A stretch of 64,000 nt of DNA. It comes from Prevotella sp. GTDB lineage: Bacteria > Bacillota > Clostridia > Christensenellales > UBA1242. A model generated the notes under the pieces. It saw nothing but the letters and a program-made list of their open reading frames with translations, did not search any database and was not told the origin of the DNA. The stretch lies in contig JAMPCO010000002.1 of NCBI GenBank assembly GCA_023666145.1, positions 2,023 to 66,022 of the forward strand, read 5' to 3'. The translations under genes and the position numbers were made by a program. Positions 7,265 through 46,189 of this stretch are shown in pieces (within the stretch, counting starts at the first letter, position 1; each line of letters starts with the position of its first letter).

Positions 7265-7285
7265 GAATAACTTTATACGTTATTC
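7265..7285 (-). promoter_or_regulatory. Perfect 7-N7-7 inverted repeat at the predicted hsp20 transcription start (candidate operator or 5'-UTR hairpin)
   Basis: GAATAAC-N7-GTTATTC at 7265-7271 and 7279-7285. It begins 7 nt downstream of the -10 hexamer. Confidence 0.45.
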
Positions 7286-7291
7286 TGCTAG

Positions 7292-7320
7292 ATTATATTA
7301 TTGTTTGCTAGCACTGTCAA
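7292..7320 (-). promoter_or_regulatory. Consensus sigma-A-type promoter of hsp20 with an upstream A-tract
   Basis: Minus strand: TTGACA (7315-7320), 17 nt, then TATAAT (7292-7297). An A8 tract (7334-7341) lies upstream, like an UP element. The 8-bp palindrome TGCTAGCA sits in the spacer. Confidence 0.7.
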
Positions 7321-7355
7321 GTGTTTATTGCTATTTTTTTTGAATTTATCAACCA

Positions 7356-11726: not shown

Positions 11727-12093
11727 TGGTGGAGACGCCGGGGATTGAACCCGGGTCCGATTGGAATCATGTTCGTACTTCTACATACTTAGTCGTTAGA
11801 GAATTGCTAACCACCAATTTAACGACAAACTGTTATGGTTAGGGCCGACTTTTGGTGCCGCGTCACGTCACCGTCATGCCGTGGTTACGTTACGCCGTTG
11901 ACTCTTTGTTTGCGAACGGTCGTTGGAAAGAGTTAAAACGTGTCGTTCGCCGATACTTTAACCGCGGTTAAGCAGCCAAAGCATAGGTGTTTGCATTGTT
12001 ATTTGCATTTAATTTTTGCAACCAATTAACGTATGGTTACCCCGCCGGTATGCTTAACGAACCGTCCGCCAACCGTCGAAGCCAATCGCCCCC
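11727..12093 (-). ncRNA. ssrA: tmRNA (SsrA)
   Basis: Minus-strand 5' end GGGGGCGATTGGCTTCGACGG. The 3' end is CCGGGTTCAATCCCCGGCGTCTCCACCA, a tRNA-Ala-like acceptor with G3:U. The internal tag reading frame GCA AAT AAC AAT GCA AAC ACC TAT GCT TTG GCT GCT TAA (12006-11968) gives ANNNANTYALAA. Confidence 0.9.
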
Positions 12094-12120
12094 ACGAAAA
12101 GACCAAAACAGTCCTGTTAT

Positions 12121-12150
12121 ATTATAGCACAGTAACCGATAAAATTGCAA
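12121..12150 (-). promoter_or_regulatory. Promoter of ssrA
   Basis: Minus strand: TTGCAA (12145-12150), 18 nt, then TGC-TATAAT (12121-12126). It lies about 27 nt upstream of the mature 5' end. Confidence 0.6.
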
Positions 12151-12173
12151 CGACATCGTGCATAAACATAGCA

Positions 12174-24300: not shown

Positions 24301-27300
24301 GGACGCCAGGTGACCCGTTTTGACCCACGCGGTTTCATTTTCCATGATAATTTCTTGTTCGCGTTTCATCATGTCAATGAATTCGGGCACCGTCAACATT
24401 TGACCCGACGAACTTTCCAATTGTGAGTTCAGGTACAGGTAGGTAATGTAGCCTTCGTTGCCCGTGGCGGCGAAATCGGCAGGGACTTTGTAGGTCGTTT
24501 TTTCATAAGTTTGGTCGGTGCCGTAAATGTGCGCCATGTAATAGTAATATTGCGCCAAAGACATCGTCCACGCGTTATTGATTTGGAATTCGTTTGTGTC
24601 GTTATTGATGTCGGTTGCGACCACGTAGTTAATGTAAATTTGCAGTGGGTCTTGGTTGGTGAAGCGTTTGGTTTCCGTGAAGTTTTTTGACAGGTTGACA
24701 AAATCTTCGTGGCTGTAAATGTAGCCGTTTTGCTTGTCTTTGTATTCCGCAATCAAGCCGTACGGATAAACCAGATCCGCCAATTTTTCGCCGTACAGGT
24801 TTTTGAAGGCACGATAAGCGTTCGTGTATTCGGTGGTGGTCATTTTTTCGGCGGTCGCATTGGCTTGCAGCAGCAAGTAATCTTCGTATTGGCGCCAAGT
24901 GAAGTCCGCATTTTGGGCGCCCGCGATGGTGTTATTGCTGGTCGAGACTTGGTATTGGTAAGTAAATAATTCGCGTGCCATATTGTAACGATTGTTGCGG
25001 TAGGTAGCAATATTTTTCACAAATTCGTTTTCACTTTCGGTGTTGGACGGTTTCGTGCTGACCGCGCTGTATTCCAAGTAACTGATATAATTATCAATGA
25101 CATTATTTTTCAAGGCTGTACGGTCGTAAGTCCATTTTTCAAAAATTTCGTTCTTCGTCAGCCAGGCCAGCAATTCGTTTTTCGCGCTGGCGGTGAATTT
25201 TTCCACGCGCACCGTTTGGCCGTTCAAGATCGTTGTACTCAAAGTCGTGGGCAAACTGCGTAACCATGGTTCCAACATTTCAACCCGACTGACCAAATCT
25301 AAATTGTTAATCGCGGACGCCAAATAACTGCGGTATTCGTCCAAGGTCATGGTTTGCTTTTTGTAGGTTGTGTTACCAACAACGCCGAACGCGTTTTCGA
25401 TGCCTTCGTATACATAATTTGTCGTCGCGAAGTCGGTCGTCGAAACGTAACTTTGGCTACCAAAATACGGGAAATCCAATTGCAAAGTGTTCATCTTGGT
25501 GGTGCTGCTACCCGAGAAGGAACTGGTAGTGAGGCTGCTGCGACCGATAATGCGCCCGAAATAGAAGCCGATGTTTGAGGCTTGCGTTGAAGTGACTTGA
25601 ATCTGGCGATTAAAGTTACTGTGCGTATTAAGTGCGTTAGTCACAGTGCCGTAATTACCGTTGACGCCAACAACCCCGCCGATAACATACTGTAGTTTAC
25701 TGCTGCTAGGCGACAAAACGTTGACACTGACGTTCAGATTTTCGATGACACCACTGTTCAAGTTACCATTGAAACCGTCGTTATACCCTGCCACGGCACC
25801 AACCGTCATGCCCCAGAAACGATTTGCGGTATCAGTTGTTTGGGCGTCACGGAACACATACGAAGAACCAGCCGAACTTAAAACTGTCCATTGTGCTAAA
25901 TTCATAGTGGTATACGTACTGGTGGTACCGTCGACATTCTTGGTAATTCCACCAGAAATTTTTCCCAAATTGATACCGACAAGACCACCCAAATAATATT
26001 TCCCCGTCAGACTGCTTAAACTGGTCAAAGCGGGTTGACTTAATTCAATCGTTTCGTCCATGATTCCGATTAAACCACCCGCAACATTTGCGGAAACGTC
26101 TTTCGTCGCGCCCGAAACATTACGGAGTATGATTTGGTTCGTGTAATATAAGCCTTTACCGTTGGTGACACGGTCATCAATCACATTGCCCGCTTTATCT
26201 TTTAAGAACCAACTCGCTTCCGAGTTTTGGCTGGAACGTGCGGCTTGTTGCACAATGGTTCCAGCAGCGTTTTTGATGATAATTTCTTTGTTAAATTGGC
26301 GACGATAAATCGTAGCGTTACCCTTATCATCCACCACACGGTAGTTATTGGGGTTCGAGGTAATGAAACCGAACACACCACCCGCAGTACCAAAACCTTG
26401 TTCGTAATCGGCATTAAAGGCTTCGACACGGGAGTAAAGAGTCTGTTGAGTGTATTCAGTTCCCGAACTGAAAGGTTCGGCACCGATATCACTTTGTCCA
26501 TTGTGGAAGTTCGCCGTTACCGATACCGAACTGTGCAAGTTATAATTTTCCACTTTAGAATCGGTAATCACGTTCAAACCGACGAAACCACCGACAATGT
26601 TACTACCCTTAATGACTTGGCTGCTGGTAACGTTGACATCGACAAAACTGGTGTTGATGGCGATACCGGCAAGGCCACCGACGTAACGTGCGGTCGAGTT
26701 AATGTTGCCGATTTCAAAATTGGCGTTACGGATGGTTGCATATTCCATCTTACCGAACAAGCCCATAGTGGCCAAATCGTTCGTGACGGTATTCAAACTG
26801 ATGCCGCTCATCGTTAAGCCGTTACCTTCAAACGTACCTGTGTAAATGATTTTGTAGGTGTCTTGAATACCTTCCAAAGCAACGTTGTCGACCAAACGGA
26901 TGTGGTTATTTTGACGGCTGGTTTCAATGTCGGTTAAAGATGATTCAGTGTTTTTGTCGGCTTCCGTGGCTTGTGCCGTTGCCGCGTAAACATAATCGTT
27001 GAATTGATCTTTGTCCCAAACCAGGTACGGATTTTTGGCGGTACCTGGGTTATATAGATACGGTGATGAGTTCCATGAATATTTACGGAAACTGACGGCG
27101 ATATCATTAGCAGCACGCAGCATGGGTCCGACTGCGGTCATCATCCAAATCGTGTTATCGGCTGCGATACCCCAGGCACCATCGTCATCCAGAGTCTGAC
27201 CGATGGAGAAACCACTGTAATTATTGATGTCAGAATATTTAGCACTGGAATTATCACTCAAACGTTTTAACGTATCGCCCCAGTCATCGCTGATACTAAT

Positions 27301-30300
27301 ACTTTCCGTATTGCCCGCATAAATCAAATTGGACAAATTGCGAGTGACCACGTTTTCGCTGGTATCCGAGCCCGCATTGATTTTAACGAAGGGCGCATAG
27401 TAATCCAACGTACCACCACCTTGCAAGTTAATGTCGTTGTTTTCAATACAGTTACTGATGCGACCGCTGGAAGTATTTTCGTAAGCGAAACCGCCAACCG
27501 CACCTTCGGTACCAGTCTTCAAAATTACCATGTTGACCATACAATCGGTAATGGTACCATTGTTCAGGTGAACGAAACCACCCAGCGAGTTACGAATCGT
27601 TTTCACTGCACCAGCAACCGAAATAAAGTTCAAATTGTCTTCACGTTCGGTGGAGCGTCCCATGGCATAACATTGTTGAATTGTGCCATTGTTTTGTCCC
27701 ACGAAACCGCCCAGTAAACTGACACGATCTTGCAATTTATTCGCGTTGGCATTGTTGATAACACTGCCGTCGCGGAAATAAGTGGAGGTAATGGTACCAC
27801 TGTTGATACCCACGACTCCCCCCACCGATGACGCATAGATGCTGACTTCATCGCTGGCACCAATTTCGGTGCGATGTTCCGGACCATACAATTCAACGTC
27901 AATCAAGACCCGACTGTTGGTCATCATGTAAGCGTTCGTTCCCACTAAACCACCCAATGTCACGCTTAAATTTTCGTTATTCGCGTAAACATAGAAGCGT
28001 GCCATTGAATTGCTGTTCATGGGGACACTTTCGTTCAAGATAATCGGACTGTAACCGTCATAGCGTGCCACATTCGTACGATCGGGTGTAATCCAATTGG
28101 CGACGTTCATGTAAATGTCATAAACGACTTGGTCCCATTTACCCGTAACAGCATTTTTGGTAACACCATAACCATTGTTATTGTAAACGTTGACAATCGC
28201 TGGTTCGCCCGTGTCGTTCAAACCAATCTCGTAGAAATAATTGTCGTCGAACACGTACCCGTCTTTATTAAACGGTAAAGCATCATCAAAATAGGTACCC
28301 GTAACTGGGTTAATCAATTCGGTCAAACTTTGCATATTGAATTGCCATTCCGACAAAACAGCACAGTTAGTAACAATCCCCTCATTTACCCCTGCCAACA
28401 TTCCGATATTTACTGTGCCTGATTGGTAATTGTCCAAGTTGACTTCCAAAGTCGTGATTGGCGCGTTAATCGTACCGTGTTCCACAACGATTTGTAAGTT
28501 TTTCACTACTGAACCAGCGGGAATTGCGGTGAACAAACCAATGTTTGTCGGCAAATTACTTAAATCAAAACCAGCACTGTTGAAGAAGATTTTGTAATTG
28601 TTACCGTCTAACGTCGCATTTTTAGGAAAACTGACTGGCTTCCAAGCACCGTTATTGAGTTCAGTGATTTTGTACAAGTAAATATCACTCATCAAGACGT
28701 AATCAACACCTGAATTTAACGCCATTAAACGTGAAGCGTTTTCTTGCGTAATAAACACAGTGGAACGGTCGCCAGCACTGTCAGCCACGGATTTTTCCGT
28801 CGTGTTAATTGCAATTCGGCTGGTAATGCGTTGCGCGTCTGTCGTATTTGCATACGCGGTTACCGCCTGTGCCCCTTCGGCGTATTCCTTGCTGAAATCG
28901 GTGACACCATAAGCAATATTGGCCGAAACTTGCATAATGGTGGTTGAGGCGTCGGCAGTATCACGCAACAAATAAGAGGTATTGTTACTGCTGTCACGAT
29001 AAATTGTGTAATTGACTTGGTGTTCCTCTTGTGCCGTGTTATTGATGACCAGATAAGTGTAACCGTCGCTGATTTTGGGGTCGTAAGTGTTAATTTCGGT
29101 TTCCAGACGGTTAATGGCGCTGTTAATGTAATATAATTCGTCGTAGTTATAATAGGATCGGTTCAATGGACCACTGATAATTTCGGGTGAGAAATACAAT
29201 TCGACGGCACTGTCGTCTAAGGTTACCGCATCGACCAGTTCATCGCCAACCTTCAATTTCCAACCACGGATTTCAAACAAGACGGGTTTAATTTGTAATG
29301 AGTAATAAGACCAAACGACTTTACCTTCCACAAAAGTGGTATATGGGATGCGGATGTCAATCCAATCATTCAAATTTTTGGCGCTGGTACGTAAAGTAAA
29401 GCCCAAAGTCAGATGTTGTCGTCCAGGGTTAATGATATTATAAGCAAAGGATTCGTATTCGTTGGTACCGCGTTTCAATCCACCGTTAAAGACTTGGATG
29501 TATTCGTAATAGAAAACAACATTCAAGTTATTAACTTCTAACGGATAATTGCGCGACGTGCCAATTGATTGTAAATATTGTGTCGTACTACCTAACGTGA
29601 CATTGGTCCAACCTGGGAAATAACTTGTTTCGCCTTGTTGTGTGCTGACTTGAATGCGTAAATTAACCATTGCATCGGTTAACGGGTTGACGCTACCTAA
29701 CTTGGGCATACCAGCGCTGTAACCAAATTGAATGGCACTTTCAAGATAATTTAACGCCGTTAAGTCACTGATCTTTTGTATCCAAAGCAACTTACCATAC
29801 GATTCTAAACGAACGTTGACCCCACCGCTTGCGTTAACGACGTCAAATTGCAAAGTACCATTACGGATGGCGTTGTTGACCGAAGTTTCAAAACTGGTTA
29901 ACGCTAAGTTTACCATGTTACGCAATGCGACATCGTCCGCATAAGATGCATTGACACGCAATTCCAACGCAACTTCGCTGTCGGTCAATGCCAGGTTATT
30001 ATCTTCGGCTTCGGTCAAATAGAAACCTTCGACAACGTACAGGACGGGCGTTATAAAGTAAGAATAAACATAATTCGGTTCTGTCGCGTTAGCGTCGGTT
30101 GCATACGGAATTTTGATTTCGACCACTTTTTCGCGCAATTTGACCACTGGCGCCAAATCAATTGTCAACATGGCCGTCGGCGTATCGTTATCAGCCACTT
30201 CACTTTGAATCGTTACCAAATTGGCTCGTTCACCTTCGATCGCTAACGTTTTTTGCGTGACCTGGTCAACGATCGTCACGCGGTCAATGAAGATTTTAGC

Positions 30301-33300
30301 CGCGTTCGGTAGTTCCACCAGATAAACTGCCGAAGTACCCAACGCTTGCACCGCATAGTCAACACCCGCACTTAATTCCAATTTACCAACGATGGTTTTA
30401 TTCCAATCATTTTCTTCATAACCCGTCGCGATGGAAATTTGATTGGCAATTAAAGTTTTGCTGCTTGCCACCAATTTCGGCACACCATTTTCGTAAATAA
30501 TGTACGACGAAAAATTCACACGGTTTTCGGTTTTTGTTTGCTTATCAACATAACGTTGCAAAACATTACCAGCCAGGCTGATATGATTACTTGGTACATC
30601 AATCTGCAAATAATCCATGGCTTGATATTCAAGATTCTTTTTCGCCAGTTCAATGGTACGCAATATCGCTTTATCTTCAGTTTGGAAAGCATTGATGCGC
30701 GCGACATATTGAATAATCGTTCTTTCATCACTGTTTGCGGTTAACAATAAATAATCGTCGTAAACATTATTTTGGTCATCTTTACCTTGAACCAATCCAG
30801 TCGTTCCCACGCCTTCAATGGTCCAGCCCGTTAATTCAAACAATAAAGGCGTAATTTCGATACAATGACTGTACCAAACATCTTTACCATTAACATTAGT
30901 CAAGTAAGGAATATAAATGCGCATCGTATTCGACAAATACGTGGCATTGGCCGCCAATTGAATTTGCAAAGTGTTTTTCGATGGATTGACCATGACACTC
31001 AGCCCTTCGTAAACCAGGGTCGTACCATCGGCAGAATTTTCAAACGGGGTAACGACACTGCCCGCATTTTCCACCCAAATGTATTGATAATACGTTTGTC
31101 CTTTAATGTTCTTCAAAGTGTAAAGTTTGGTGCTACCAATCATTTGGTTTGCACTGGTTGTATTCATTGTCGACGGATGTTCAGGATTCGGTCTTTGGGT
31201 TGCCGACCAAACGCGGTATGGGATAATGCTTTCCACAACATTACGGCGATCTTTAGTGATTTCCACGATGACGGGATAACCCTTTTCGTCGTAATTAACC
31301 GCTGCGTCAATGATAATGTATTGGTTGCTGTCCAAAGTTATGGACACTGGCGCTACCCCGTTATTCAAATTGGCATTCAGTGCGTCAATCGCGGCTTGAA
31401 CGTTTGCCAAATCGGTTGCGGCTAAATTGGAGATATCACTGGTTAACACACGGTACTCTAAATCTTCGGTCGTATACGGCGCAATGACCCAAACCGCACG
31501 TTCGGGGTGTTGCACCGTTTCAAAGCCCACAATTTCATAATAAACCGGGTTAATTTTTAAAGTAAAATCCGCACCAAGTGCAATTTCAATCGGCGTATCA
31601 ACCGTCGCCGTACTGGATAATTTAATGGTGACATAATTTTGTTCTAAGTTAACGACTTGGTAATCCGTGCCATCGCTTAACGACGTCACACCGTCCATGA
31701 CAGTACTGTCCAAATAATAGGTTTTTGTGGAGCCGATACCTTGGTATTCTTCACGCACATAAGGTTCATCGTTGGTGACACCATCATCCTTGACCACGAT
31801 TTTGAAGGTTTGCCACAAACGGTCAGCCGTTTCATCGGTTAAACTGGCAGTACCTTGGTATGGTACATAAGAAACCGCCGTTGTAATTTGGAAATGATAA
31901 GTTTGCGCATTTTCGCGTGTACGTGTTTTCGAGACGTACGGAGAAGAAGTAAATTGTCTGGTAAATGCGTTCATCTCTGCTTGCAAACGGTCACCAGCGC
32001 CATCTTTGTTTTCTGTGGTTTGCTTTAACACGTCGTCCGAATATTCAAACACGGGTACAAAAGTTTTACCGCTGCTGATATTAGTGATTTCGTTCATGAA
32101 GGTATCAATGTTATCCACAGAGATGATATCATCAGGATAACCGCTCAAGGCAATACCAGTTACCTTAAACCATACGGGGCGAATAGTTAAAATGAACCCC
32201 ACATTATCCGTATCAGTACTGTCGGGATCATTGTTGACAAATCCCCGATTGGTATAAATAAAGACCTTCAATTCACGGTTCACTAAATCCGCGTCAGGTT
32301 TCAATGTAATACGCAGTTGATTGCCACCAATGGCTTTTACCATCCAAGCCCCAGAGCCATTGGTATAACGTTTCCATGCACTGTCGTCGTCGGCATTTTC
32401 CGCATGATTATTTTCAAATAGAGCAATCATTTCATCACTGAAACCACCTGGTAACTTGGGTGAATCCAAGGTATAAACAGCATCGTAGCCAATGGTTAGT
32501 GCCACCGTTCGGCTGCGCGGGACGTTGGGATACGCCATACCAAAGCCAGCGACTTGGTCAGAATAACGCGCGTATTGGAAGACATCGCGCACTATTTGTG
32601 TCGGTTTCGCGATTGCAAGATTCACAATGTTGGCAACACCAGTATCGCTGTATTTCACGGCGGCGCGGACAACCAAATATTCGCCACCAATGGTGTAAGT
32701 TTCCAAAAGGCTGGTCCAACCTTGTCCAGCAACCGCCAATTGTTGGTTGAAAGCATCAATTTGGGCTTGAATGGCCGTTTGCAAAGCGGCATCGCCGTGG
32801 GTAGTATAACGGGCACGAACACGGAACAACAAATCGCTAACTTTTTCCGCCGATTTATCGGAAACGATTAACCACATATGACGTTCAGGGTGCTGGACGA
32901 CGTCAAAGCCTTCCACCACGAACCAAACTGGTTTGACGGTCATCGTAAAAGTCGTATCATCATGCACAATGGTAAAGGTAATGCGATTTTCCAACAGTCC
33001 GCTGTTGGGTGCAATGTAGACTTTCAAAGCGTAACTGCTGCCATACTTAACCACTTCCGCCGTTACGGTTTCTGCACTAACATCTTTTTCGGTATTATCA
33101 CCATTATAAATATGGATTTCATCAACCGTTGCGTCAGCGAAGTCCAAACCCAAATGGTAATATTCAGTGGTACCAATGGCTTGGTAATGTGTGGCGGAAT
33201 TGTTTTCCTCCCATAATGAATATTCAATGTAACTTTCCACCACGTTTAACGGATTATTTTCCACATTTAAGAAAGTGGGAACCCTGCGGCTTAACGTTCC

Positions 33301-36300
33301 CGCCATACCATAATCAACCGCAAGGTCAATTTTCAAATACTGACCATCACTTTCAATTTCGACTAATCCACCTTTTTCCGTGTTCAAATTCGAATTGAAG
33401 GTTTCAATGTAATTGATGATACTTTCCCCGTCAAACGTGACCGCATCATTGTATTTCACGACAGCACGATATACGACGTCTTGAACTAAATCTTTGTATC
33501 CGATCAATTTTACCGGTTGTTCGGGATAAGCCGTTTCAATACCAATCACTTCAAACAGGACGGGTTGAATTGTCAGCACAAAGACTGTATCCGAACCGCT
33601 GTAAAAATTAAAGACAAGATCTTGTTTCAATAAAATATCTGCCGCGTTGGGTAATAATTCCACCGTCACCACGTTGTCTTCTAACGTTACTTTCCAGCCC
33701 CGCTTTTGCAGTTTGTCATCATCGAAAATCAAATCGTCAACGTTCATACTGACGGATTTCGCAAGGTCAATGGTGTAACTGGTGGTGGTGCCAACCGCCT
33801 GCACAACGGTGCGTGTACGCGGTCCCGAAGGCATAGGCGGATATTCGCTTTCCGTTGCGGGTTTCCCATAAATGGTGTACGTGAACTCAACATCCAAGCG
33901 GATGACAAAGGCATTGTCGGCTGCCGATGCGGCGACCAATGTCGGTTCGCCCGTGCTGTAATCCAAATAAACCGTAATCAATAAATCACCCGCCATTAAA
34001 TCCGTATCGTAATAGCGACCAATTAAATTGGCTTGCGTATTTTGCAATTTGTTGGTGAATTCTGGAAGACGGGCGGGAATATTTAAGAATGCGTTGGCCG
34101 AATATTTGCCAAACACAGCATCAAAAATCACATCCGACGGCGAATCAATCTCTTCACCATAGTACAAACGGATATCGTGGTCTTCATTGTTCTGCCCCGC
34201 CAAAGTCAAACCTTCTACGGTATAGTAGGCGGGAATAACATTCAAAATGTAAGACGGTTCAGCGTCAGCGTTATTAACGAAAATACCTAAACGAATCACA
34301 TTACCAATCAAATTCGTGGTCTCGGTTAAGTTAACTTTAATGCAGCGTGAATTGGTTGAATCACGGTCAACCCACCATTCGGCACCACTATTGCGCACAA
34401 AGGTTTGCCAAGTTTCTTTACCCGCAGCGTCTTTGCCCGTACTGTATTTAATTGATGCAAATGTGCGGTTGACGTTATAAGTTACTTCTTGTCCTAAGGC
34501 TTGGGCTTTGGTATTTTCGGGCGTGCCATCAATCAAGATATAACGGTAAGTATTTTGGATGGTCGTCGCACTGTTCACCAGATTGGTTAAACGTGGAACG
34601 CCGCCTTCGTAATTGACACCGGCAATCAGCGTAATAAAGCCAGCATCGTCAATGCGCGATACCAAACCAGAACTGTTTAACGATGTCAAAAATTCGTTGG
34701 TGGCACTGGTATAATCGAAATCGTCAAAAGCCTTATTACTGCGGCTAGACGCAAAGTCTAAATTCAATTTAGACAACCAATTTGTGACCCCCGTTTGAAT
34801 CATAACGGGAACTTCATCAATGTGGTCCGCCAATAAGATTTGTTCGACCGTGAAATACGCTGGAATGATATTCAATACGTACATCAATTCGCCTTCTTGG
34901 TTGTACGCCATGATTGACAACACTTTATCAAACAAGTTCGTGTTCGGGTCTAAAGTTACTGCAACGATCCCTTCTTTCACATTGAAAACTGCGTTCCAAC
35001 CAGCATTGCGTTCCCAAGCGTAATTGCCGTCCGTGCGGATTTCGTATTTGTCCAAAGCGGAATCATAAACTACACCCGAAAGCGCAATGTTATAGCGTAC
35101 CGTCGTACCAACCGCTTGTGCGACCGTACGGGTACGCCCGTTCGGGGCAGTCGGCAAATCGATGGAACTGTCACCAGTTTCCCCCGTATCCGAACCGAAA
35201 GTGCGTACTGGTAAATAAGTCGCAATTTGGGTGCCGTTACGGTCCAAAGTCGGGGCTCCGTTAACATAGGTGACGCCCGCGGTAATCAACAAATAACTGG
35301 TCGCTGTAATCGGTTGTGCCCCGTCGGCGCGGGTAACTTCACGGGTGCTGGGGTCAAAATTAAAGTTCAAAATACCGTCGTCGTTAGGGACACGACCGAA
35401 CGTCAATGATGTGCTGTTCGACAGGTTATTTTGTGCATTCAACAATTCGGTGTTGAAAGCGTTAATGGCAGTGGTGACATCGCTGTCATCGGCACAAACG
35501 ATACCACCGGCTTCCACCGTCAATGCAGTCGGTGTTGTCAAGGCAATCAATGGTTTGACTGGATTATTTTGCAATTTGAAATCGGTAAACGTGAAATAGA
35601 CGGGAACAATGGTTAATTCTAATTGCGGGTCACTGGCAGCGGTCGAATAAACATTCAACACAATTTTGCCAGCCTTAATCAAGGCTTTGTATGCCTCATT
35701 GTTTGTCACGGTGGCACTACGGTTTTCTAAACTGACCGTGATTGTTACCGTGTTGCGGTTTTGCGTTTTAATGTCATAGTCCCAGAACCCCGCAAGGTTG
35801 GCGTTATCGCTGTCAGTGTTAACATATAACTTAGCAACGTGTAAAGCATCCCAATTATAGAACGTAAAAGTCGATGCGGTTCCAACGGCGACGTATTCGG
35901 TACGTTTGTCAACTGGTTTGGTTTCCACCACATCATATTTGAATGTCCGCGCGTAACGGCAAGTACCGTTCTTGGTCAACACAGGTACCCCACCAATGTA
36001 AGAATAAGCCATCTGTACAGTTACTTGTCCTGCCGTTTCATAATTGCACGATACCAAATTGGACGTGAGCAAACTGTTGTTAAAGGTGGTCATTTTTTCG
36101 GTTAAACTGCTGTTGGCAAGACTGGTGTCGTAATTAAACAACGCACGATATTTTAATTGTGCTAATTCGTCACGCGTTGTTAATTGTAAACGGGTTTCGT
36201 AATGACCGATGACTTCCATACTGTCAAATTCGAAATAGACTGGTACGATAACCACACTGAGATACGGATTGACGTAATCCCCTGGGCGACGGTACGGAAT

Positions 36301-39300
36301 ACGGATTTCCAAACTGGCACCAATCGCCGCCACATCGGCTTTCAAATAAACCGAGAGAGTTTGTGCCACCGAGTTAATGGTAACCGTAGCATAAGTCAAT
36401 TCAATCAATGTGGTTGTTGTTCCAATGCCATTAAAAGTGAAACCAGCATAATTGGGTACGCAATCACTGGGCAAAGCAATATCATAAACTGCCGTGGTAC
36501 CTAAGGCTTGATATTGCGTTTGGGTCATCGTACAAACCGCATAATCTTCCGTGGTTTCATCGGGCGTAATCACAAAACTGTCACGGTATTTCGCATCCAA
36601 AATCATGGTTTCAACAATTGCTTTCGCATTGTTTTCGCCTTGAATCGAAACGCTGATCCCAAAGCGCGTACCATCCGCTAAACGGTTCGACACTTGCGTG
36701 TCACACAAAATGTAAGTTTTGAAATAATAGCGGCCATTCCATTTATAACCTTCGGCGGCCGACCACGCTGAAACCATTTTGGGAGTACTGCTGTTACTCA
36801 GATATGGTTGATAGTATTTTTCGGTCTCGTTGTAAATCATTTGCGTGAAACCAATTGAATAGGTAACCGTGTCATAGATTGGTTTGCCCGTTAAATCAGT
36901 ACCAATTAAAACATTTTCGGTATGTGCTTGTGAAGTCCAAAGATTGATATTGACAACATTGATGTAATAAGGCGTGGGATAAACCACCAAAATACCGCCC
37001 GCAGCATCGTCATCAAGATAGATAATTCCAGTATCGGTTTGCCCCGACGCCAAGGTTAAAGCGCTTTTGTTACTTTCCACGGTACTGGTATCGGCGAAGT
37101 GTGCCATAGAAATGTTGTAAATGCCTTGTTTATAAAGGTTAAAGGTCGCCGAATCGTTGGCTGGGGTTTTTGTAGCCACCAAAGGTGAACCAGTTAAATT
37201 TTCTTGCACTAACAAACGTGCCCCAGAAATGTCATAGAACGGGTCAACATCGGGTGACACAATGACGATTGCCACCTCGATTTTCAGATAATAAATGAAA
37301 TAAAAATCGGTAGAATGGACAGGATTGGCTGCGTTCAAACATGTCAATTTGAATTCTAATTTGGCTTTTCCGCCTTCCATATTGACATAGGAAACAGTTT
37401 TACCGTCTTCAAATAAACGATAATAAACCCCATCGTACAAGAAATTGTAGGTTAACAATTCTGACGACCAAGTTTCTTGATCGACACGGACGGTTAAATC
37501 ATACGTGGCCGTCGTCATTCCGTCCAAAGTTACGGAGTCTTGGGCGATATTCAAATAATTAACGCCACCCTTCACATTGACCTTAACGGTTGCCGTCAAA
37601 GCGTCCAAGTTAAAGACATCGACAGTGGCATTCAATCCCACACCGTCGGTAAGCGCGATATAAGGATGAAACGTATAAGTGCCACCTTGATAAGTCACAT
37701 ATTCGGTGCGTCCGGCTTCGGCATCGGTAAAATCAGGATTAGCCAATTGCCAACCAGAATTGCTGTATTCATCCGTCAAATTCGTGTAGAAGTTGAACCC
37801 GTTGCCGCGTTGCATGGTAACGGTATCTACCGCATTGGTATATTCGTTGGGTGACAAATTTTTGCGCGACACTAAACCGTTGCCACTCTCACTCCTGATG
37901 CTGACTTCAAAGGTGTCAATGTATTTGACCGCATAGAATCGCATCGCCATTCCGCTTCCCGTAGCATTACCAATTGCCATAAGTTCATAATAAACTGTCG
38001 TCGTATTATCGCTGTAATTGGCACCGTTACCTGTTGAATCAAAAACAAAGGTCAAATCAAGGGTTAGTCGCTTGTTACCGTCTTCGTTTTCATCTCCTAA
38101 GGAGGCAGACTCGCCTAATGTAATATCCTTACCGATTTGCTGGCCGTTCACAAATTTTCTGAACCAGAATCGATTTGCTTTCAACGGCGCCCAGCCGAGC
38201 ACGGTATACAAATCGTCGATATAGTAAACGTTGGCGTTAATTTGCGAATTGTACGTAGCGTTATCTTCGGGCGTGTAAAATAAAGCCGCCGTCCATGAAC
38301 CGTTTTGTGTGGGTAAAACCCAGTTATAACCGCCCAAGTTATTGCGCACACCACTGTTGGCATCGTGCACATTATTGCTGGTTAATTCTTTGATGGTTTC
38401 GTCGATTTCGTCCGCACTACCGATGTAAAGTGTGATGAAAGCGTAGGTATCAGGTAACACCAAATCGACGGCATCGTCATCATCGTCGTCGACCGATTCG
38501 ACGAAACGCAAACTGTCACGGGCATAAATGACCAAAGCGTAAGTGCCCAAACTGGAAACGCCTGTGGTCGGTGTGATAAAAACTTTGCCCGTTACAGAAT
38601 CTAAACGCGCGGTAGCACAATCTTCCAGATTCAAATTGACGTTATTGGCAACTGGCGTAAAGGCGGGCAAATCATATTTACCATTTTTCCATTTGGCGTA
38701 CGTAATACCGTAAGCCTGATAATTGGCATCATCGGCGGTTTTGAAATTGACTTCCGCGTTCGTAATTGCCCCGTCGGTCGAAACCAATTCCAAATAATTG
38801 CCCAAAGCGTCATTATTGTTAAAGCCATTGGTTAAGGTAATCGCGTTGGGTTTTTCATTGGTAATTGTTACATTCGTATCGACCGTTAAACCACCAATAT
38901 AATCGAATTCAAACGGTGGATTATCGGCCAATTGATCGTGTTCAGGGAATACATAGCGTTTGTAAATTTTGAAACCGACTTTGAAAGTTTCGTCCGTCAA
39001 ATATTTGGCGGTAATGACAAATTTGTTTTCCGCACTTCCCTGTTCAACCGTCACGTTTTCGTTCAGAAGTGTGGGCTCGATGTGCAAATATTGGTAATCC
39101 GTAATTGTTTTGCCGTCCAAAGTCGATAAATCCAAGGTAATTTCGTAATAGTCGGTGATACCGTCCAAATTGACATTCAAGGGTAAAGTTACGTTGCCAA
39201 CGGGGTCAACCACAATCACATAGACCGTGATGTTAGTTTGGTTTTCCGCATAAACGGCATCACTGTAGGCGTGTAGGCTGACTTGACATTCGTACCAGCC

Positions 39301-41613
39301 TTCTGGCAAATCACGGGCATCAATCATATTGGTTTTGGTATTGCTGATAATTTTACCGTTGGCGTCACAAATTTGGTCAAATACGGCATAGGCACCCACG
39401 CTGGCACCTGGGGTATCAAGCGCAAATTCATAGGTAAAACCTTTCCGCACGTAGACAGTACGAACATAATCGTAATTTGAAGCATCATTGTCGGTGAGTG
39501 TTTGATAAATTTTACCTTTACTACTGCTGACAACCGACATGGACAAGGCTTCGACAGTCGGATAGACGCGAATATAAAAAGTGTAAGATTTTCCGTTGGT
39601 GTATTCAATTGTCATGGGATAATTTTTGTAATATTCGATTAAATCAATATTGTTAGCGGTAATGGTATAAGTCATATGATAATAACCCGAGATTCCCCAT
39701 TCATTGTTAAACGGAACCGAACGATCGCAAGTTATGTTGAACGGTAACTGGTCGCTGTTATCCGAAACTTTGGCAGTGTTCCAGAATCGGCTGTAAACAT
39801 AACTGATTTGGTTGTTGGCGTCGGTCATGGCATAGCGGCCATAGACATCAATGCTTTGCGTACTGAAAGATTGGTGTCTTGTATCATAAACCAATGCAAC
39901 ACCCCATGCGTCATCATCAAATTGGGCTAAATTATCAACTTGGAATTCGTCGATTGCGCTGGTGACATCCAGTTTAATATCGCACGTGGCTTTACCTTCG
40001 ACGGTCAATTCATACAGGCTTTTGACCCGTAAAGTCAAAGACGCGACATCCATGAAAGGCAGCGCAGCATCCGTTTGCGCAAACGACACCGCAAAACGGT
40101 TCAAATAATGGGCATAATAATTATCTTCCGCCTCCGACAACATCACCCAATCATCAACCACATCCGACCAATAACCGATTTGTAAAATGTCATACAAACT
40201 GATGTTACCGGGGTTGTCGGACGCCTTCCAACCATAGACGCCCGATTTTCCGTTCGGCTTGTCATCAACAACTTCCAATTCAAATTCAATCTCGGCATCG
40301 GCGTTAACTGTTTTACCATTACCAGTGTCTAACGTGAAAACGTCATAGTAACCACCTTGATTACCTTCATAATAAAAGGCGTCAAGGCTTTTTTTACTGG
40401 GAAGTAAGTTATATGATTCGGTACCGTAAATTGCAGTTTCTTCATCAAGATAAAATTCGTTGCGGACACGAATATAAATCGTGTCGCGCACTTGCACATT
40501 AGCGTCCGAAACATCATTAAAATAAATTTCTTTGTTATTGACTTTAACAATGGGATAGGCGGTGATGTTGATGGCTACTTCACCCAAATTCTTGACCGTC
40601 GACAACAAACGTTCGTACGGAGTAACCCCGCTGTCAACACGCACCATGGTTGTGTCCGCGCTTTTGATTTCAAAACCGTAATCCGAAAATTGCGATTTCT
40701 CACAATCAAGCGCAAACGTAAAAGTCGCACTTGATGTCTCAGTGCGATTAGCAATTAAATCCCAAATATTGTTGTACGCCGCAGTAGTTTCGGCTTTATA
40801 AGCGTCCGTATCTACAAGAATTTGGTTGACCGCAGGGAAAACGTAAAACGGGACGTCGAGCCAATCCTTCATGGCTGGCAATTTGGCTTGTAACGTAATG
40901 TATTGGTCGACACAAGTGGCTTGTTCCGTCACTCGCAAGAAACCATGTTCCAAGACCACACCCGGGTAATTTTGTGGTAAACGATATTCAACGGGAAATT
41001 TGTTCGGTGTGTAACTGCGCTCGTCGTCATCGGGATGCGCATAGAACAAAAATTTACTTAAAATTTCTGCTGAGGATAAATCCAAAGTGTCACCACCTTG
41101 GCGAATCCCGAAATGTGCATCTTGGGCAATTTGCATATCCTTCGCAATCATGTTGACGGTAACATTGACCGTCACAGTTTGTCCACCCGAACGTGACGTA
41201 AAGGTTATGGCGACGGGGGCACCACCGTTCCGTCCAGTAACGGTGAAAGTCGTTGAACCCGTTTTCTGCACTTCCTCGTCGGGCGTAACTTGCGTTACGT
41301 TGACAATTCCACTGCTAATTGAACTTTTGTTTAACTCTACCCCGCGGTCAGCCGTACTCGGTAACCCACCGACCGTAATCGTAAATGATGCCGATGAAGA
41401 CGCCGTTTCCACGATACGGAATCTTTTATCGGATGATGTATCTCTTTCCAGTTCGATTTCCAAAGTGATGTTTGGTTTATCGACAGTAATCGTATTATTG
41501 GCATAAACATCTTTTTGACGTCCCGAATTATTAAAGGCGAAAACAACACCAACAACCGCGGCAATCGCAATGATGCTGACAATGAATAAACCGACAAAAC
41601 CGCGTTTTTTCAA
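21352..41613 (-). CDS. Giant (6753 aa) membrane-anchored cell-surface protein. It has an N-terminal anchor, a varied beta-rich region, at least 11 tandem modules of about 210-265 aa, a GLUG-motif beta-helix region and a roughly 1400-aa C-terminal region.
   Basis: An uninterrupted 20,262-nt ORF. It has a TTG start with a GGGGGA SD 7 nt upstream and its own consensus promoter. The N-terminus is MKKRGFVGLFIVSIIAIAAVVGVVFAF. Repeated GG[LFV][VA]G-x-N-x-G-x-[IV] motifs are present. No LPXTG or C-terminal TM is seen. Confidence 0.9.
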   Translation of the reverse strand: MKKRGFVGLFIVSIIAIAAVVGVVFAFNNSGRQKDVYANNTITVDKPNITLEIELERDTSSDKRFRIVETASSSASFTITVGGLPSTADRGVELNKSSISSGIVNVTQVTPDEEVQKTGSTTFTVTGRNGGAPVAITFTSRSGGQTVTVNVTVNMIAKDMQIAQDAHFGIRQGGDTLDLSSAEILSKFLFYAHPDDDERSYTPNKFPVEYRLPQNYPGVVLEHGFLRVTEQATCVDQYITLQAKLPAMKDWLDVPFYVFPAVNQILVDTDAYKAETTAAYNNIWDLIANRTETSSATFTFALDCEKSQFSDYGFEIKSADTTMVRVDSGVTPYERLLSTVKNLGEVAINITAYPIVKVNNKEIYFNDVSDANVQVRDTIYIRVRNEFYLDEETAIYGTESYNLLPSKKSLDAFYYEGNQGGYYDVFTLDTGNGKTVNADAEIEFELEVVDDKPNGKSGVYGWKASDNPGNISLYDILQIGYWSDVVDDWVMLSEAEDNYYAHYLNRFAVSFAQTDAALPFMDVASLTLRVKSLYELTVEGKATCDIKLDVTSAIDEFQVDNLAQFDDDAWGVALVYDTRHQSFSTQSIDVYGRYAMTDANNQISYVYSRFWNTAKVSDNSDQLPFNITCDRSVPFNNEWGISGYYHMTYTITANNIDLIEYYKNYPMTIEYTNGKSYTFYIRVYPTVEALSMSVVSSSKGKIYQTLTDNDASNYDYVRTVYVRKGFTYEFALDTPGASVGAYAVFDQICDANGKIISNTKTNMIDARDLPEGWYECQVSLHAYSDAVYAENQTNITVYVIVVDPVGNVTLPLNVNLDGITDYYEITLDLSTLDGKTITDYQYLHIEPTLLNENVTVEQGSAENKFVITAKYLTDETFKVGFKIYKRYVFPEHDQLADNPPFEFDYIGGLTVDTNVTITNEKPNAITLTNGFNNNDALGNYLELVSTDGAITNAEVNFKTADDANYQAYGITYAKWKNGKYDLPAFTPVANNVNLNLEDCATARLDSVTGKVFITPTTGVSSLGTYALVIYARDSLRFVESVDDDDDDAVDLVLPDTYAFITLYIGSADEIDETIKELTSNNVHDANSGVRNNLGGYNWVLPTQNGSWTAALFYTPEDNATYNSQINANVYYIDDLYTVLGWAPLKANRFWFRKFVNGQQIGKDITLGESASLGDENEDGNKRLTLDLTFVFDSTGNGANYSDNTTTVYYELMAIGNATGSGMAMRFYAVKYIDTFEVSIRSESGNGLVSRKNLSPNEYTNAVDTVTMQRGNGFNFYTNLTDEYSNSGWQLANPDFTDAEAGRTEYVTYQGGTYTFHPYIALTDGVGLNATVDVFNLDALTATVKVNVKGGVNYLNIAQDSVTLDGMTTATYDLTVRVDQETWSSELLTYNFLYDGVYYRLFEDGKTVSYVNMEGGKAKLEFKLTCLNAANPVHSTDFYFIYYLKIEVAIVIVSPDVDPFYDISGARLLVQENLTGSPLVATKTPANDSATFNLYKQGIYNISMAHFADTSTVESNKSALTLASGQTDTGIIYLDDDAAGGILVVYPTPYYINVVNINLWTSQAHTENVLIGTDLTGKPIYDTVTYSIGFTQMIYNETEKYYQPYLSNSSTPKMVSAWSAAEGYKWNGRYYFKTYILCDTQVSNRLADGTRFGISVSIQGENNAKAIVETMILDAKYRDSFVITPDETTEDYAVCTMTQTQYQALGTTAVYDIALPSDCVPNYAGFTFNGIGTTTTLIELTYATVTINSVAQTLSVYLKADVAAIGASLEIRIPYRRPGDYVNPYLSVVIVPVYFEFDSMEVIGHYETRLQLTTRDELAQLKYRALFNYDTSLANSSLTEKMTTFNNSLLTSNLVSCNYETAGQVTVQMAYSYIGGVPVLTKNGTCRYARTFKYDVVETKPVDKRTEYVAVGTASTFTFYNWDALHVAKLYVNTDSDNANLAGFWDYDIKTQNRNTVTITVSLENRSATVTNNEAYKALIKAGKIVLNVYSTAASDPQLELTIVPVYFTFTDFKLQNNPVKPLIALTTPTALTVEAGGIVCADDSDVTTAINAFNTELLNAQNNLSNSTSLTFGRVPNDDGILNFNFDPSTREVTRADGAQPITATSYLLITAGVTYVNGAPTLDRNGTQIATYLPVRTFGSDTGETGDSSIDLPTAPNGRTRTVAQAVGTTVRYNIALSGVVYDSALDKYEIRTDGNYAWERNAGWNAVFNVKEGIVAVTLDPNTNLFDKVLSIMAYNQEGELMYVLNIIPAYFTVEQILLADHIDEVPVMIQTGVTNWLSKLNLDFASSRSNKAFDDFDYTSATNEFLTSLNSSGLVSRIDDAGFITLIAGVNYEGGVPRLTNLVNSATTIQNTYRYILIDGTPENTKAQALGQEVTYNVNRTFASIKYSTGKDAAGKETWQTFVRNSGAEWWVDRDSTNSRCIKVNLTETTNLIGNVIRLGIFVNNADAEPSYILNVIPAYYTVEGLTLAGQNNEDHDIRLYYGEEIDSPSDVIFDAVFGKYSANAFLNIPARLPEFTNKLQNTQANLIGRYYDTDLMAGDLLITVYLDYSTGEPTLVAASAADNAFVIRLDVEFTYTIYGKPATESEYPPMPSGPRTRTVVQAVGTTTSYTIDLAKSVSMNVDDLIFDDDKLQKRGWKVTLEDNVVTVELLPNAADILLKQDLVFNFYSGSDTVFVLTIQPVLFEVIGIETAYPEQPVKLIGYKDLVQDVVYRAVVKYNDAVTFDGESIINYIETFNSNLNTEKGGLVEIESDGQYLKIDLAVDYGMAGTLSRRVPTFLNVENNPLNVVESYIEYSLWEENNSATHYQAIGTTEYYHLGLDFADATVDEIHIYNGDNTEKDVSAETVTAEVVKYGSSYALKVYIAPNSGLLENRITFTIVHDDTTFTMTVKPVWFVVEGFDVVQHPERHMWLIVSDKSAEKVSDLLFRVRARYTTHGDAALQTAIQAQIDAFNQQLAVAGQGWTSLLETYTIGGEYLVVRAAVKYSDTGVANIVNLAIAKPTQIVRDVFQYARYSDQVAGFGMAYPNVPRSRTVALTIGYDAVYTLDSPKLPGGFSDEMIALFENNHAENADDDSAWKRYTNGSGAWMVKAIGGNQLRITLKPDADLVNRELKVFIYTNRGFVNNDPDSTDTDNVGFILTIRPVWFKVTGIALSGYPDDIISVDNIDTFMNEITNISSGKTFVPVFEYSDDVLKQTTENKDGAGDRLQAEMNAFTRQFTSSPYVSKTRTRENAQTYHFQITTAVSYVPYQGTASLTDETADRLWQTFKIVVKDDGVTNDEPYVREEYQGIGSTKTYYLDSTVMDGVTSLSDGTDYQVVNLEQNYVTIKLSSTATVDTPIEIALGADFTLKINPVYYEIVGFETVQHPERAVWVIAPYTTEDLEYRVLTSDISNLAATDLANVQAAIDALNANLNNGVAPVSITLDSNQYIIIDAAVNYDEKGYPVIVEITKDRRNVVESIIPYRVWSATQRPNPEHPSTMNTTSANQMIGSTKLYTLKNIKGQTYYQYIWVENAGSVVTPFENSADGTTLVYEGLSVMVNPSKNTLQIQLAANATYLSNTMRIYIPYLTNVNGKDVWYSHCIEITPLLFELTGWTIEGVGTTGLVQGKDDQNNVYDDYLLLTANSDERTIIQYVARINAFQTEDKAILRTIELAKKNLEYQAMDYLQIDVPSNHISLAGNVLQRYVDKQTKTENRVNFSSYIIYENGVPKLVASSKTLIANQISIATGYEENDWNKTIVGKLELSAGVDYAVQALGTSAVYLVELPNAAKIFIDRVTIVDQVTQKTLAIEGERANLVTIQSEVADNDTPTAMLTIDLAPVVKLREKVVEIKIPYATDANATEPNYVYSYFITPVLYVVEGFYLTEAEDNNLALTDSEVALELRVNASYADDVALRNMVNLALTSFETSVNNAIRNGTLQFDVVNASGGVNVRLESYGKLLWIQKISDLTALNYLESAIQFGYSAGMPKLGSVNPLTDAMVNLRIQVSTQQGETSYFPGWTNVTLGSTTQYLQSIGTSRNYPLEVNNLNVVFYYEYIQVFNGGLKRGTNEYESFAYNIINPGRQHLTLGFTLRTSAKNLNDWIDIRIPYTTFVEGKVVWSYYSLQIKPVLFEIRGWKLKVGDELVDAVTLDDSAVELYFSPEIISGPLNRSYYNYDELYYINSAINRLETEINTYDPKISDGYTYLVINNTAQEEHQVNYTIYRDSSNNTSYLLRDTADASTTIMQVSANIAYGVTDFSKEYAEGAQAVTAYANTTDAQRITSRIAINTTEKSVADSAGDRSTVFITQENASRLMALNSGVDYVLMSDIYLYKITELNNGAWKPVSFPKNATLDGNNYKIFFNSAGFDLSNLPTNIGLFTAIPAGSVVKNLQIVVEHGTINAPITTLEVNLDNYQSGTVNIGMLAGVNEGIVTNCAVLSEWQFNMQSLTELINPVTGTYFDDALPFNKDGYVFDDNYFYEIGLNDTGEPAIVNVYNNNGYGVTKNAVTGKWDQVVYDIYMNVANWITPDRTNVARYDGYSPIILNESVPMNSNSMARFYVYANNENLSVTLGGLVGTNAYMMTNSRVLIDVELYGPEHRTEIGASDEVSIYASSVGGVVGINSGTITSTYFRDGSVINNANANKLQDRVSLLGGFVGQNNGTIQQCYAMGRSTEREDNLNFISVAGAVKTIRNSLGGFVHLNNGTITDCMVNMVILKTGTEGAVGGFAYENTSSGRISNCIENNDINLQGGGTLDYYAPFVKINAGSDTSENVVTRNLSNLIYAGNTESISISDDWGDTLKRLSDNSSAKYSDINNYSGFSIGQTLDDDGAWGIAADNTIWMMTAVGPMLRAANDIAVSFRKYSWNSSPYLYNPGTAKNPYLVWDKDQFNDYVYAATAQATEADKNTESSLTDIETSRQNNHIRLVDNVALEGIQDTYKIIYTGTFEGNGLTMSGISLNTVTNDLATMGLFGKMEYATIRNANFEIGNINSTARYVGGLAGIAINTSFVDVNVTSSQVIKGSNIVGGFVGLNVITDSKVENYNLHSSVSVTANFHNGQSDIGAEPFSSGTEYTQQTLYSRVEAFNADYEQGFGTAGGVFGFITSNPNNYRVVDDKGNATIYRRQFNKEIIIKNAAGTIVQQAARSSQNSEASWFLKDKAGNVIDDRVTNGKGLYYTNQIILRNVSGATKDVSANVAGGLIGIMDETIELSQPALTSLSSLTGKYYLGGLVGINLGKISGGITKNVDGTTSTYTTMNLAQWTVLSSAGSSYVFRDAQTTDTANRFWGMTVGAVAGYNDGFNGNLNSGVIENLNVSVNVLSPSSSKLQYVIGGVVGVNGNYGTVTNALNTHSNFNRQIQVTSTQASNIGFYFGRIIGRSSLTTSSFSGSSTTKMNTLQLDFPYFGSQSYVSTTDFATTNYVYEGIENAFGVVGNTTYKKQTMTLDEYRSYLASAINNLDLVSRVEMLEPWLRSLPTTLSTTILNGQTVRVEKFTASAKNELLAWLTKNEIFEKWTYDRTALKNNVIDNYISYLEYSAVSTKPSNTESENEFVKNIATYRNNRYNMARELFTYQYQVSTSNNTIAGAQNADFTWRQYEDYLLLQANATAEKMTTTEYTNAYRAFKNLYGEKLADLVYPYGLIAEYKDKQNGYIYSHEDFVNLSKNFTETKRFTNQDPLQIYINYVVATDINNDTNEFQINNAWTMSLAQYYYYMAHIYGTDQTYEKTTYKVPADFAATGNEGYITYLYLNSQLESSSGQMLTVPEFIDMMKREQEIIMENETAWVKTGHLASDGGARISDIGAIKLGWASNGSDWTKYLKDQVQAENGVISLANNTTQWQALSNYMTAKSTLGLTITKYREMIGMGGTLYDLLQNYADDKYATDKYLFALKCEQYGWTTAQIEFIRQYYANGNTYDLQYALAATTDGVVLDTTANGNVRAVYQNSAQEVSSGGEWWNDTDSSGDVYTSGEPVGVWYLQALGEDSIFKNGDDIEYNFMSNHRIDLSAQNGLGAAMYLDVDGNKLFGTATHSSSGAESAVRKADSDILLLSECAANVADFYRLVTDDDNNSSWHYYKIVRQILPNDRTVTNADNEGSGNRSDYLEEALWWRAQGFTAAEFDQIKAHAMTQSVPTDAVVKNNNQYTVRSAGYTLADDWSYGFSGFVSEGFTTAEYVEIVLGAQYKDGTWNSTYFDYALFKKLLHAESVNESDIKGCVPSGTPYYYPFNNVLGVDSASTFMSNVADENELADALEFSSDRMAYLDLLRTKHTAANYIDWAQAENHYYTPGSGDTRTIKYFRLNHYIYLVKKDLTIDDDFTALDYRWVLDQTIRADIFYETVTQESRTTDLVAYRREWYNDDHDINDGKPFITYRDYCEWINVYAYDEQYRAARGDFAMETEVDGTTVEEENSSNGWLTLESFAVWKRMEKYENNVEYLAKLGKTAGQDPITAPIYKRQISTTVFPKIYSSGEQTVDETTGMVTDNKYVLPQMVYAGDLFPVEYYHWGKVKDYGELDDGYGWKGADYYENYKDSPMDDDHKRDVKDRYEYNERYTIWTIDRGLDVKKYRDDGKIGKDEFNESSTYIDQQKILANPTRYINDAKFAKTCDEWCGGKNNVYECKDTTHAAYQVRQWLGRYGWYICEKGDEHDIIKGQVILRLDESNFQDHKEIDHHNHYPHYGEYVQLYIPYDYFEKACKMIKSVYSKSNNYAGYTNYMKYWARNGSPDWICNTSEHSSGIDAEYQTLVQKTYLVTNFWNSYDGTKSPIDGKNLGQKANGF
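28700..36550 (-). repeat. Diverged tandem protein-module array inside the giant gene (boundaries approximate)
   Basis: Eleven occurrences of a strand motif x-P-[VAL]-[YWLF]-[FY]-x-[FVI]-x-G: IVPVYFEF, IVPVYFTF, IIPAYFTVE, VIPAYYTVEG, IQPVLFEVIG, VKPVWFVVEG, IRPVWFKVTG, INPVYYEIVG, ITPLLFELTGW, ITPVLYVVEGF and IKPVLFEIRGW. I located them at roughly nt 36240, 35600, 34860, 34230, 33560, 32930, 32180, 31545, 30850, 30045 and 29285. Each unit also carries an F-N-x-x-L helix and a QA-x-GT-x-x-Y strand. Confidence 0.8.
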
Positions 41614-43334: not shown

Positions 43335-43343
43335 GTTTCCAGT

Positions 43344-43736
43344 TTACCGCTTCTTACGGAAAAAAGCCACCAAAATGTTTTGCGCTGCGACGTTCGGTTG
43401 CAATTCGATTGGGGTCTCCCAATTCAAATTAGTGGTTGACCGTGCACCGATATAAACCTTTTGCAAACGGGCATTGATGATGGCCCCCATACACATTTGG
43501 CAAGGCTCCAAAGTTACGTACATTTCACAACCATTCAAACGCCATGACTTCAATTTACGGCACGCACGATGCAACGCGACAATTTCCGCGTGCCAAAGAC
43601 AATTACGCTTCCGTTCCCGTTGGTTGTAACCTTTGGCGATGACGTGACCGCCTTTGACAATCACACAGCCAATTGGCACTTCGCCCCGCCGTTCCGCTTT
43701 GCGTGCCTGTTCCACCGCCATCTGCATGAAATCCAT
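43344..43736 (-). CDS. tadA: tRNA-specific adenosine deaminase TadA
   Basis: HAEIVAL and LEPCQMCMGAI zinc motifs are present. I prefer the start MDFMQMAVEQARKA at 43736, which shares one base with the upstream stop (TAATG), over the track start at 43790. Confidence 0.85.
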   Translation of the reverse strand: MDFMQMAVEQARKAERRGEVPIGCVIVKGGHVIAKGYNQRERKRNCLWHAEIVALHRACRKLKSWRLNGCEMYVTLEPCQMCMGAIINARLQKVYIGARSTTNLNWETPIELQPNVAAQNILVAFFRKKR

Positions 43737-46187: not shown

Positions 46188-46189
46188 TT

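Follow-up and report, generated by a model that had tools for sequence, protein, structure and literature searches.

The stretch of DNA considered here (64,000 nucleotides, hereafter the window, from contig JAMPCO010000002.1 of assembly GCA_023666145.1, labelled Prevotella sp. and placed by GTDB in the Clostridia) contains a giant gene whose 6,753-residue product carries eleven tandem copies of a module made of two domains, called A and B below. Housekeeping genes surround it (recD2 and pheST lie downstream, and others such as tadA and nusA elsewhere), which indicates a bacterial chromosome of the Clostridia type. The features under study are listed in Table 1. The protein begins with the residues KKR followed by a hydrophobic segment of 22 residues, an arrangement which is kept in the orthologues and looks like a signal-anchor. 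Another beta-rich stretch, of about 1,500 residues, separates this end from the array, which is followed by a region of about 1,000 residues with GLUG motifs. According to the conservation profile, this predicted beta-helix shows the highest conservation in the protein (0.63 identity, vs 0.53 for the array, which is about equal to the protein average). The composition (rich in Thr, Asn and Tyr, 0.3% Cys, net charge of -124) fits that of an extracellular protein. No C-terminal wall anchor or sorting motif was found, neither LPXTG nor SLH. The last ~1,400 residues (aa 5341-6753; positions 21355-25593, minus strand) show the lowest conservation and the most gaps (0.42-0.43 identity), with a low of 0.26 at about aa 6451-6600 and a conserved island (0.61) at aa ~6301-6450; six of the 30 cysteines of the protein fall in its final 170 residues. 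Comparison of the N-terminal, beta-helix and C-terminal regions with PDB sequences returned nothing meaningful.

Table 1 Features of the giant gene and of its upstream neighbour, in window positions.
Feature	Positions	Strand	Residues	Remarks
Giant gene	21352..41613	minus	6,753 aa	Open reading frame (ORF) of 20,262 nt with a TTG start, from the ORF list and translation
Whole array	28768..36966	minus	1550-4282	(A-B)x11, then an A-like domain lacking B
Unit 1	36235..36966	minus	1550-1793	Located with hidden Markov models (HMMs); most atypical A domain
Unit 2	35596..36237	minus	1793-2006	
Unit 3	34855..35598	minus	2006-2253	
Unit 4	34225..34857	minus	2253-2463	
Unit 5	33556..34227	minus	2463-2686	
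Unit 6	32923..33558	minus	2686-2897	Modelled unit; A ~33175..33558, B ~32923..33210
Unit 7	32170..32925	minus	2897-3148	
Unit 8	31540..32172	minus	3148-3358	
Unit 9	30841..31542	minus	3358-3591	Its alignment was used to retrieve loci L001-L011
Unit 10	30040..30843	minus	3591-3858	
Unit 11	29278..30042	minus	3858-4112	
Probable twelfth A domain	28768..29280	minus	4112-4282	No B partner; caps the array before the beta-helix
GLUG-motif beta-helix region	25594..28743	minus	~4291-5340	Distal to the array; weak Pfam GLUG match (E 0.0013, below cut-off)
DUF4097-type membrane protein	41700..43334	minus	544 aa	Directly upstream of the giant gene, always adjacent

The original prediction, made from the letters and translated ORFs of the window, had pointed out a strand motif recurring eleven times at intervals of roughly 210-265 residues. 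All eleven of the quoted forms were located, at aa 1789, 2002, 2249, 2459, 2682, 2893, 3144, 3354, 3587, 3854 and 4108. Written as [IV]xP[VAL][YLW][FY], the motif has exactly these 11 matches in the 6,753 residues, while ~0.10 would be expected from the composition. The spacings are 213, 247, 210, 223, 211, 251, 210, 233, 267 and 254 residues, so that the first interval, previously counted as 212, is one residue longer and the range extends to 267. Compared with each other by BLASTP, the units are 20-34% identical, with E-values down to 2e-11, and each scores 75-156 bits against profiles which include the orthologues. In a hold-out comparison, all odd units are recovered at 8.8-34 bits with an HMM of the even ones, against a maximum of 1.8 bits for reversed and shuffled controls; in the opposite direction, units 1, 6 and 10 score 17-28 bits with the HMM of the odd units, and units 2, 4 and 8 stay at noise level. 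The low identity between copies and this last result are what could be expected if the periodicity were a coincidence of composition or short motifs in a long beta-rich protein, with no true domain repeat. Against this stand the excess of motif matches, the BLASTP and profile scores, the recovery of all odd units, and the fact that a single alignment of 127 units gives a confident AlphaFold2 model (described below); the explanation is refuted by these results and we give it practically no weight. The repeat is present at the protein level alone, since Tandem Repeats Finder reports 0 arrays in the DNA of the giant gene. The sequence of the array is not an assembly artefact: in an independent assembly of run X1, one contig of 41.8 kb matches positions 28700-37000 with no differences, and so do pieces from a second sample, X2.

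HMMs of A only and of B only show a strict alternation of the two domains, 11 times, and have no match in the remaining ORFs of the window, that of a neighbouring 2,614-residue protein among them. The array is thus real, as had been proposed, and it starts earlier in the protein (at about residue 1550) than the extent of 28700-36550, or about aa 1700-4300, first given for it. The count of at least eleven copies also holds, with eleven complete A-B units followed by what is probably a twelfth A domain lacking its B. The latter is only marginally seen with the HMM (independent E-value 0.13), while an hhalign comparison of its orthologue profile with the A profile gives a probability of 71% (E 3.7e-5, 103 columns, A positions 5-113). 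No further copy was found with an hhalign probability above 50%, either in aa 31-1430 or beyond aa 4300.

The anatomy of the module was studied using an alignment of 127 units, taken from the window and from loci L001-L011, with which the stretch aa 2676-2910 around unit 6 was modelled in AlphaFold2. The model (predicted local distance difference test score, pLDDT, of 92.0; predicted template modelling score, pTM, of 0.83) contains two sub-domains, and its pTM indicates a defined A-B orientation. Domain A (~115-150 aa) is an alpha+beta domain covering model residues ~11-124, with strands at 12-19, 40-46, 76-80, 84-92 and 116-124, a few additional short strands, and a single long helix (57-71) which corresponds to the F-N-x-x-L element; the Y-x-x-G-x-P-x-L element lies at the end of the 84-92 strand and in the next turn. 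Modelled alone, domain A reaches a pLDDT of 92.4 and a pTM of 0.85. Domain B (~95-115 aa) extends from Q-A-I-G-T to I-x-P and has seven strands, at model residues 131-221 according to DSSP. Its first two strands are formed by Q-A-I-G-T-x-x-x-Y, and the I-x-P of the boundary motif is the end of its last one, while the latter half of that motif (V-x-F-x-V-x-G) already opens the following A as its first strand. The model thereby agrees with the helix and strands which had been assigned to these elements from the letters. Each B passes into the next A without a linker, via a proline (I-x-P-V-x-F-x-V) which is 99-100% conserved. Across the 127 units, conservation otherwise falls on core hydrophobics and on the P, G and Y residues found at turns and junctions (G139 in 99% and Y144 in 98%), a pattern which reads as that of a scaffold and not of a common binding site. 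Both the sequence profiles and the model indicate that the unit is a pair of unrelated domains, not a single domain of 210-265 residues. The possibility of A being a diverged copy of B was rejected on the basis of a profile-profile comparison (hhalign probability 0.1%).

The module had been described as not assignable to any family, and this holds at the sequence level. Residues 1-4350 have no Pfam family at E<=0.1 and no NCBIfam match, and the array has none in PHROGs. Searched one by one against Pfam, the 127 units give noise, with the commonest family matching only 4 members (E 0.005); MucBP (PF06458) is absent from these matches, as is any lectin or adhesive family. The 127-unit profile finds nothing at E<=10 among all PDB sequences. 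The profile of the eleven units of the window, run against 1.84 billion representative proteins, finds 17 at E<=0.001, which are family members or fragments with the exception of two distant large relatives (3,063 and 6,053 aa), where it is mainly the second half of the unit that can be recognised. No description of this domain family was found in the literature. The structural comparison separates the two domains. For the whole unit, Foldseek lists weak matches to tandem immunoglobulin (Ig) domains in the PDB (Pfs230 D13-14, titin and the IL-1 receptor; E ~1e-4, TMq 0.2-0.24). Single I-set domains match as well, over ~98 columns which we attribute to domain B of the model, with a probability of 0.98-0.99 and E ~1e-4 to 1e-3, the Ig-type targets including titin I21, MyBP-C and Pfs230. 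Domain B is therein similar to the titin-type I-set and tandem Ig domains (PDB 8p35, 3lcy and 9n5i), but it differs from them in that the TM-score on the target is 0.36-0.40, the root-mean-square deviation ~6 Å and the identity 10-13%. We therefore describe the predicted structure of B as an Ig-like seven-strand sandwich, which is a weak likeness at fold level and not membership of a family. Domain A alone does not match these domains, and its best Foldseek hits have E-values of 0.93 in PDB and 0.82 in BFVD; the absence of a known fold thus holds for solved structures and viral predictions, and neither beta-grasp or protein-L-like structures nor any binding domain are among its matches in these two sets. 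The earlier view that the repeats do not look like classical Ig domains is accordingly borne out for A and, going by the predicted structure, probably has to be revised for B.

Using aa 1797-4115 as query, 23 homologues of 3,801-7,497 residues (nearly all of 6,535-7,497) were found at 32-70% identity, in metagenome-assembled genomes labelled Clostridia or Eubacteriales, and none of them has Pfam domains. The gene is carried by 11 GTDB species representatives, from water-deer caecum, buffalo rumen, mouse gut and other gut samples, and among the proteins searched the family is restricted to this small set of uncultured Clostridia from gut and rumen. Exactly 11 units are present in all 24 full-length or near-full-length homologues and in 10 of the 11 genome loci, the remaining locus being truncated. 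When the 264 units are compared with those of other genomes, the best match is in 262 cases the unit with the same ordinal position, and the mean identity is 41-63% between positional orthologues, compared with ~27% between paralogues. Conservation differs from unit to unit (0.41 to 0.68), unit 1 being the most conserved at 0.68. Because all relatives have 11 units and these are positional orthologues, the array is ancient and fixed and not a recent or variable expansion. Together with the divergence of the paralogues and the absence of a DNA-level repeat, this confirms the original prediction of an old and maintained array. To judge from these alignments, it predates the divergence of the whole family, with no sign of concerted evolution, gain or loss. 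The two distant relatives (P0034 of 6,053 aa and P0033 of 3,063 aa) share the N-terminal region of the family and retain few recognisable B and A domains; in this sister group the array has apparently diverged past HMM recognition or been partly replaced.

We consider it probable, with moderate confidence, that the array serves as the stalk in a very large fibre on the cell surface. This reading is preferred because the conserved residues belong to the core and turns, the junctions have no linker and the A-B orientation is confidently predicted, and because the composition appears extracellular and the better-conserved beta-helix lies on the distal side. The strict A-B alternation, the resemblance of B to Ig domains and the fixed number of positionally orthologous units also speak in its favour. 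The protein would be exported and held in the membrane through its N-terminal hydrophobic segment. After the first ~1,500 beta-rich residues, the eleven A-B modules would build the stalk, with the last strand of each B running straight into the next A through the near-invariant proline. As such junctions leave no flexible spacer between them, the 22-23 domains may form a rather stiff rod, for which a length of ~90-100 nm can be estimated assuming ~4 nm per domain, and the GLUG beta-helix and C-terminal region at its far end would be kept at a distance from the cell. The ~27% identity of neighbouring units would be that expected for long arrays which avoid inter-domain misfolding and recombination, and the need to avoid these events would explain why the number stays at 11.

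A stalk of this type would be in line with the fibrillar adhesins, a class of surface proteins consisting of a stalk and a tip (PMC8286594, PMC9210967). In both cases a very long protein, exported or here predicted to be so, carries a stalk of tandem beta-sandwich domains between an anchor (a predicted one in our case) and a distal functional region, and the composition is Cys-poor, Thr/Asn-rich and acidic. The tandem stalk domains used to recognise such adhesins are present here as (A-B)x11 with head-to-tail junctions. Unlike in those proteins, no recognised adhesive tip domain is found distal to the anchor, no known stalk family (Big, Cna_B, SdrD_B, Rib, FIVAR, MucBP, Flg_new and others) matches the array, the predicted anchor is an N-terminal hydrophobic segment instead of LPXTG, and the repeat is a hetero-pair of unrelated domains. 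A parallel for the latter is provided by the Periscope Proteins, such as the G5-E repeats of SasG and Aap, whose unit also consists of two different sub-domains joined head to tail without a linker, in a rod (presumed in our case) which projects a distal domain; the unit described here is about twice as large and has no sequence similarity to them. The array further differs from these Periscope Proteins, which have near-identical DNA repeats with a copy number varying between strains (PMC8201768, PMC9704523), in lacking any repeat at the DNA level, in the divergence of its paralogues and in the fixed number of units in all homologues and untruncated loci.

Several points weigh against the stalk. 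The source organism is uncultured, the supposed stiffness of the rod is deduced from the absence of linkers, and the Pfam, NCBIfam and PDB sequence searches of the protein revealed no tip domain of a known adhesive or enzymatic type; apart from the sub-threshold GLUG match, they gave no adhesive family in the N- and C-terminal regions. Furthermore, the sequence of each unit is kept throughout the lineage (41-63% identity), which could mean that the units have specific functions of their own and are not pure spacers. In an alternative reading, each A, or each A-B pair, would bind a host glycan, mucin, a plant-fibre polymer or another cell. The Mub repeats of the mucus-binding protein of Lactobacillus reuteri offer the model for such a multivalent adhesin: they are tandem repeats of ~200 residues with two domains each, found, as ours would be, in a very large surface protein of a Firmicute. 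The retention of every unit as a distinct positional orthologue, the range of conservation between units and the recurrence of a non-Ig domain in each of them are all compatible with ligand binding. The positions conserved across units are however structural ones (core, Pro, Gly and Tyr), the 127 units are devoid of MucBP, lectin or adhesive Pfam similarity, and domain A has no structural match to any binding domain in PDB or BFVD; the absence of beta-grasp structures among the matches of A and the Ig-like prediction for B also set the module apart from Mub. We thus regard ligand-binding modules as unlikely, though worth bearing in mind, and keep the stalk as the preferred reading.

Upstream of the giant gene, the gene order is conserved over positions 41700-54034 (minus strand). 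It begins with a second giant protein, of 2,614 aa in the window and 2,521-2,827 aa among the relatives, and continues with an MBL-fold gene of opposite orientation, two proteases of the CPBP/Rce1-like type, a deaminase resembling tadA and a DUF4097-type membrane protein of ~500 residues, after which comes the giant gene itself. This order is identical in loci L012 and L013 and is kept even in the most distant orthologues. Homologues of the 544-residue membrane protein carry PF13349 and share contigs with the giant orthologues. At the other end lies a gene for a putative lipoprotein of 347 residues (20248-21291, plus strand), which is convergent to the giant gene at its 3' end and lacks any Pfam match. 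Its homologues reach 58% identity, one of them being labelled Treponema/Prevotella, and sit on unrelated contigs, none on those of the giant orthologues. These locations give no sign of a conserved partnership with the giant gene, and the lipoprotein gene looks patchily distributed rather than syntenic.

This 3' end bears on another alternative, in which the array is still a stalk and the fibre serves contact-dependent antagonism or delivery, with a variable effector at its C-terminus directed against nearby cells, instead of acting as an adhesin. The low conservation of the last ~1,400 residues, which is lowest at about aa 6451-6600, could be that of such an effector, and the patchily distributed convergent lipoprotein gene at the 3' end would also fit this reading. 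No toxin, peptidase or pre-toxin domain was however detected in the Pfam, NCBIfam and PDB sequence searches, and as the lipoprotein homologues are located away from the giant-orthologue contigs, no conserved effector-immunity pair is in evidence. A delivery fibre is in our view improbable, and we retain the stalk of a surface fibre without assigning it this role.

Two further observations concern the window outside of this gene cluster. A VirD4/TraG-type type IV coupling protein (54106-56100, minus strand; T4SS-DNA_transf, E 2e-48) is flanked by the gene for the 2,614-residue surface protein and by PNP_UDP_1 and Ppx/GppA, with no other conjugation genes in view. A transfer-messenger RNA gene (11727-12093, minus strand; 148 bits) overlaps the first 60 nucleotides of the ORF at 12033..13673 (plus strand), a fusion of an M19 dipeptidase and an M14 carboxypeptidase whose true start probably lies further downstream.

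The architecture proposed here is also comparable with that of other giant surface proteins of Gram-positives, namely Giant1-5 of Apilactobacillus kunkeei, which are lineage-restricted extracellular proteins of 3,000-8,000 residues (PMC12863079). The likeness consists in a giant, lineage-restricted and, in our case, presumed surface protein of a Firmicute with a beta-solenoid, long elongated regions and giant genes next to it. The beta-solenoid of Giant1-4 is N-terminal, whereas the beta-helix comes after the array in our protein; no sequence relationship to Giant1-5 was detected, and both lineage and habitat (here gut and rumen Clostridia) differ. Going beyond the stalk, it may be speculated that domain A is a new fold and that the eleven non-interchangeable A-B modules are a "molecular ruler" which sets the ~100 nm reach of a lineage-specific surface organelle, to which the syntenic membrane protein of DUF4097 type and the second giant (~2,600-residue) protein would also contribute in this uncultured gut and rumen clade. 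This is a tentative proposal, and we think it unlikely to hold in full.

What is new is a lineage-restricted and uncatalogued pair of domains within a familiar kind of protein, and the biological impact of the array by itself is modest. With a confident model and no counterpart in the PDB, domain A is a candidate new fold. The array is a natural opposite of the Periscope Proteins, its unit number being frozen while the units have diverged to ~27% identity, and it would be useful for studying how long tandem arrays escape misfolding and recombination. A and B constitute two uncatalogued domain families which could be deposited as new Pfam entries; with these, a few dozen "dark" giant proteins from Clostridia of the gut and rumen would each gain annotation over ~2,700 residues.

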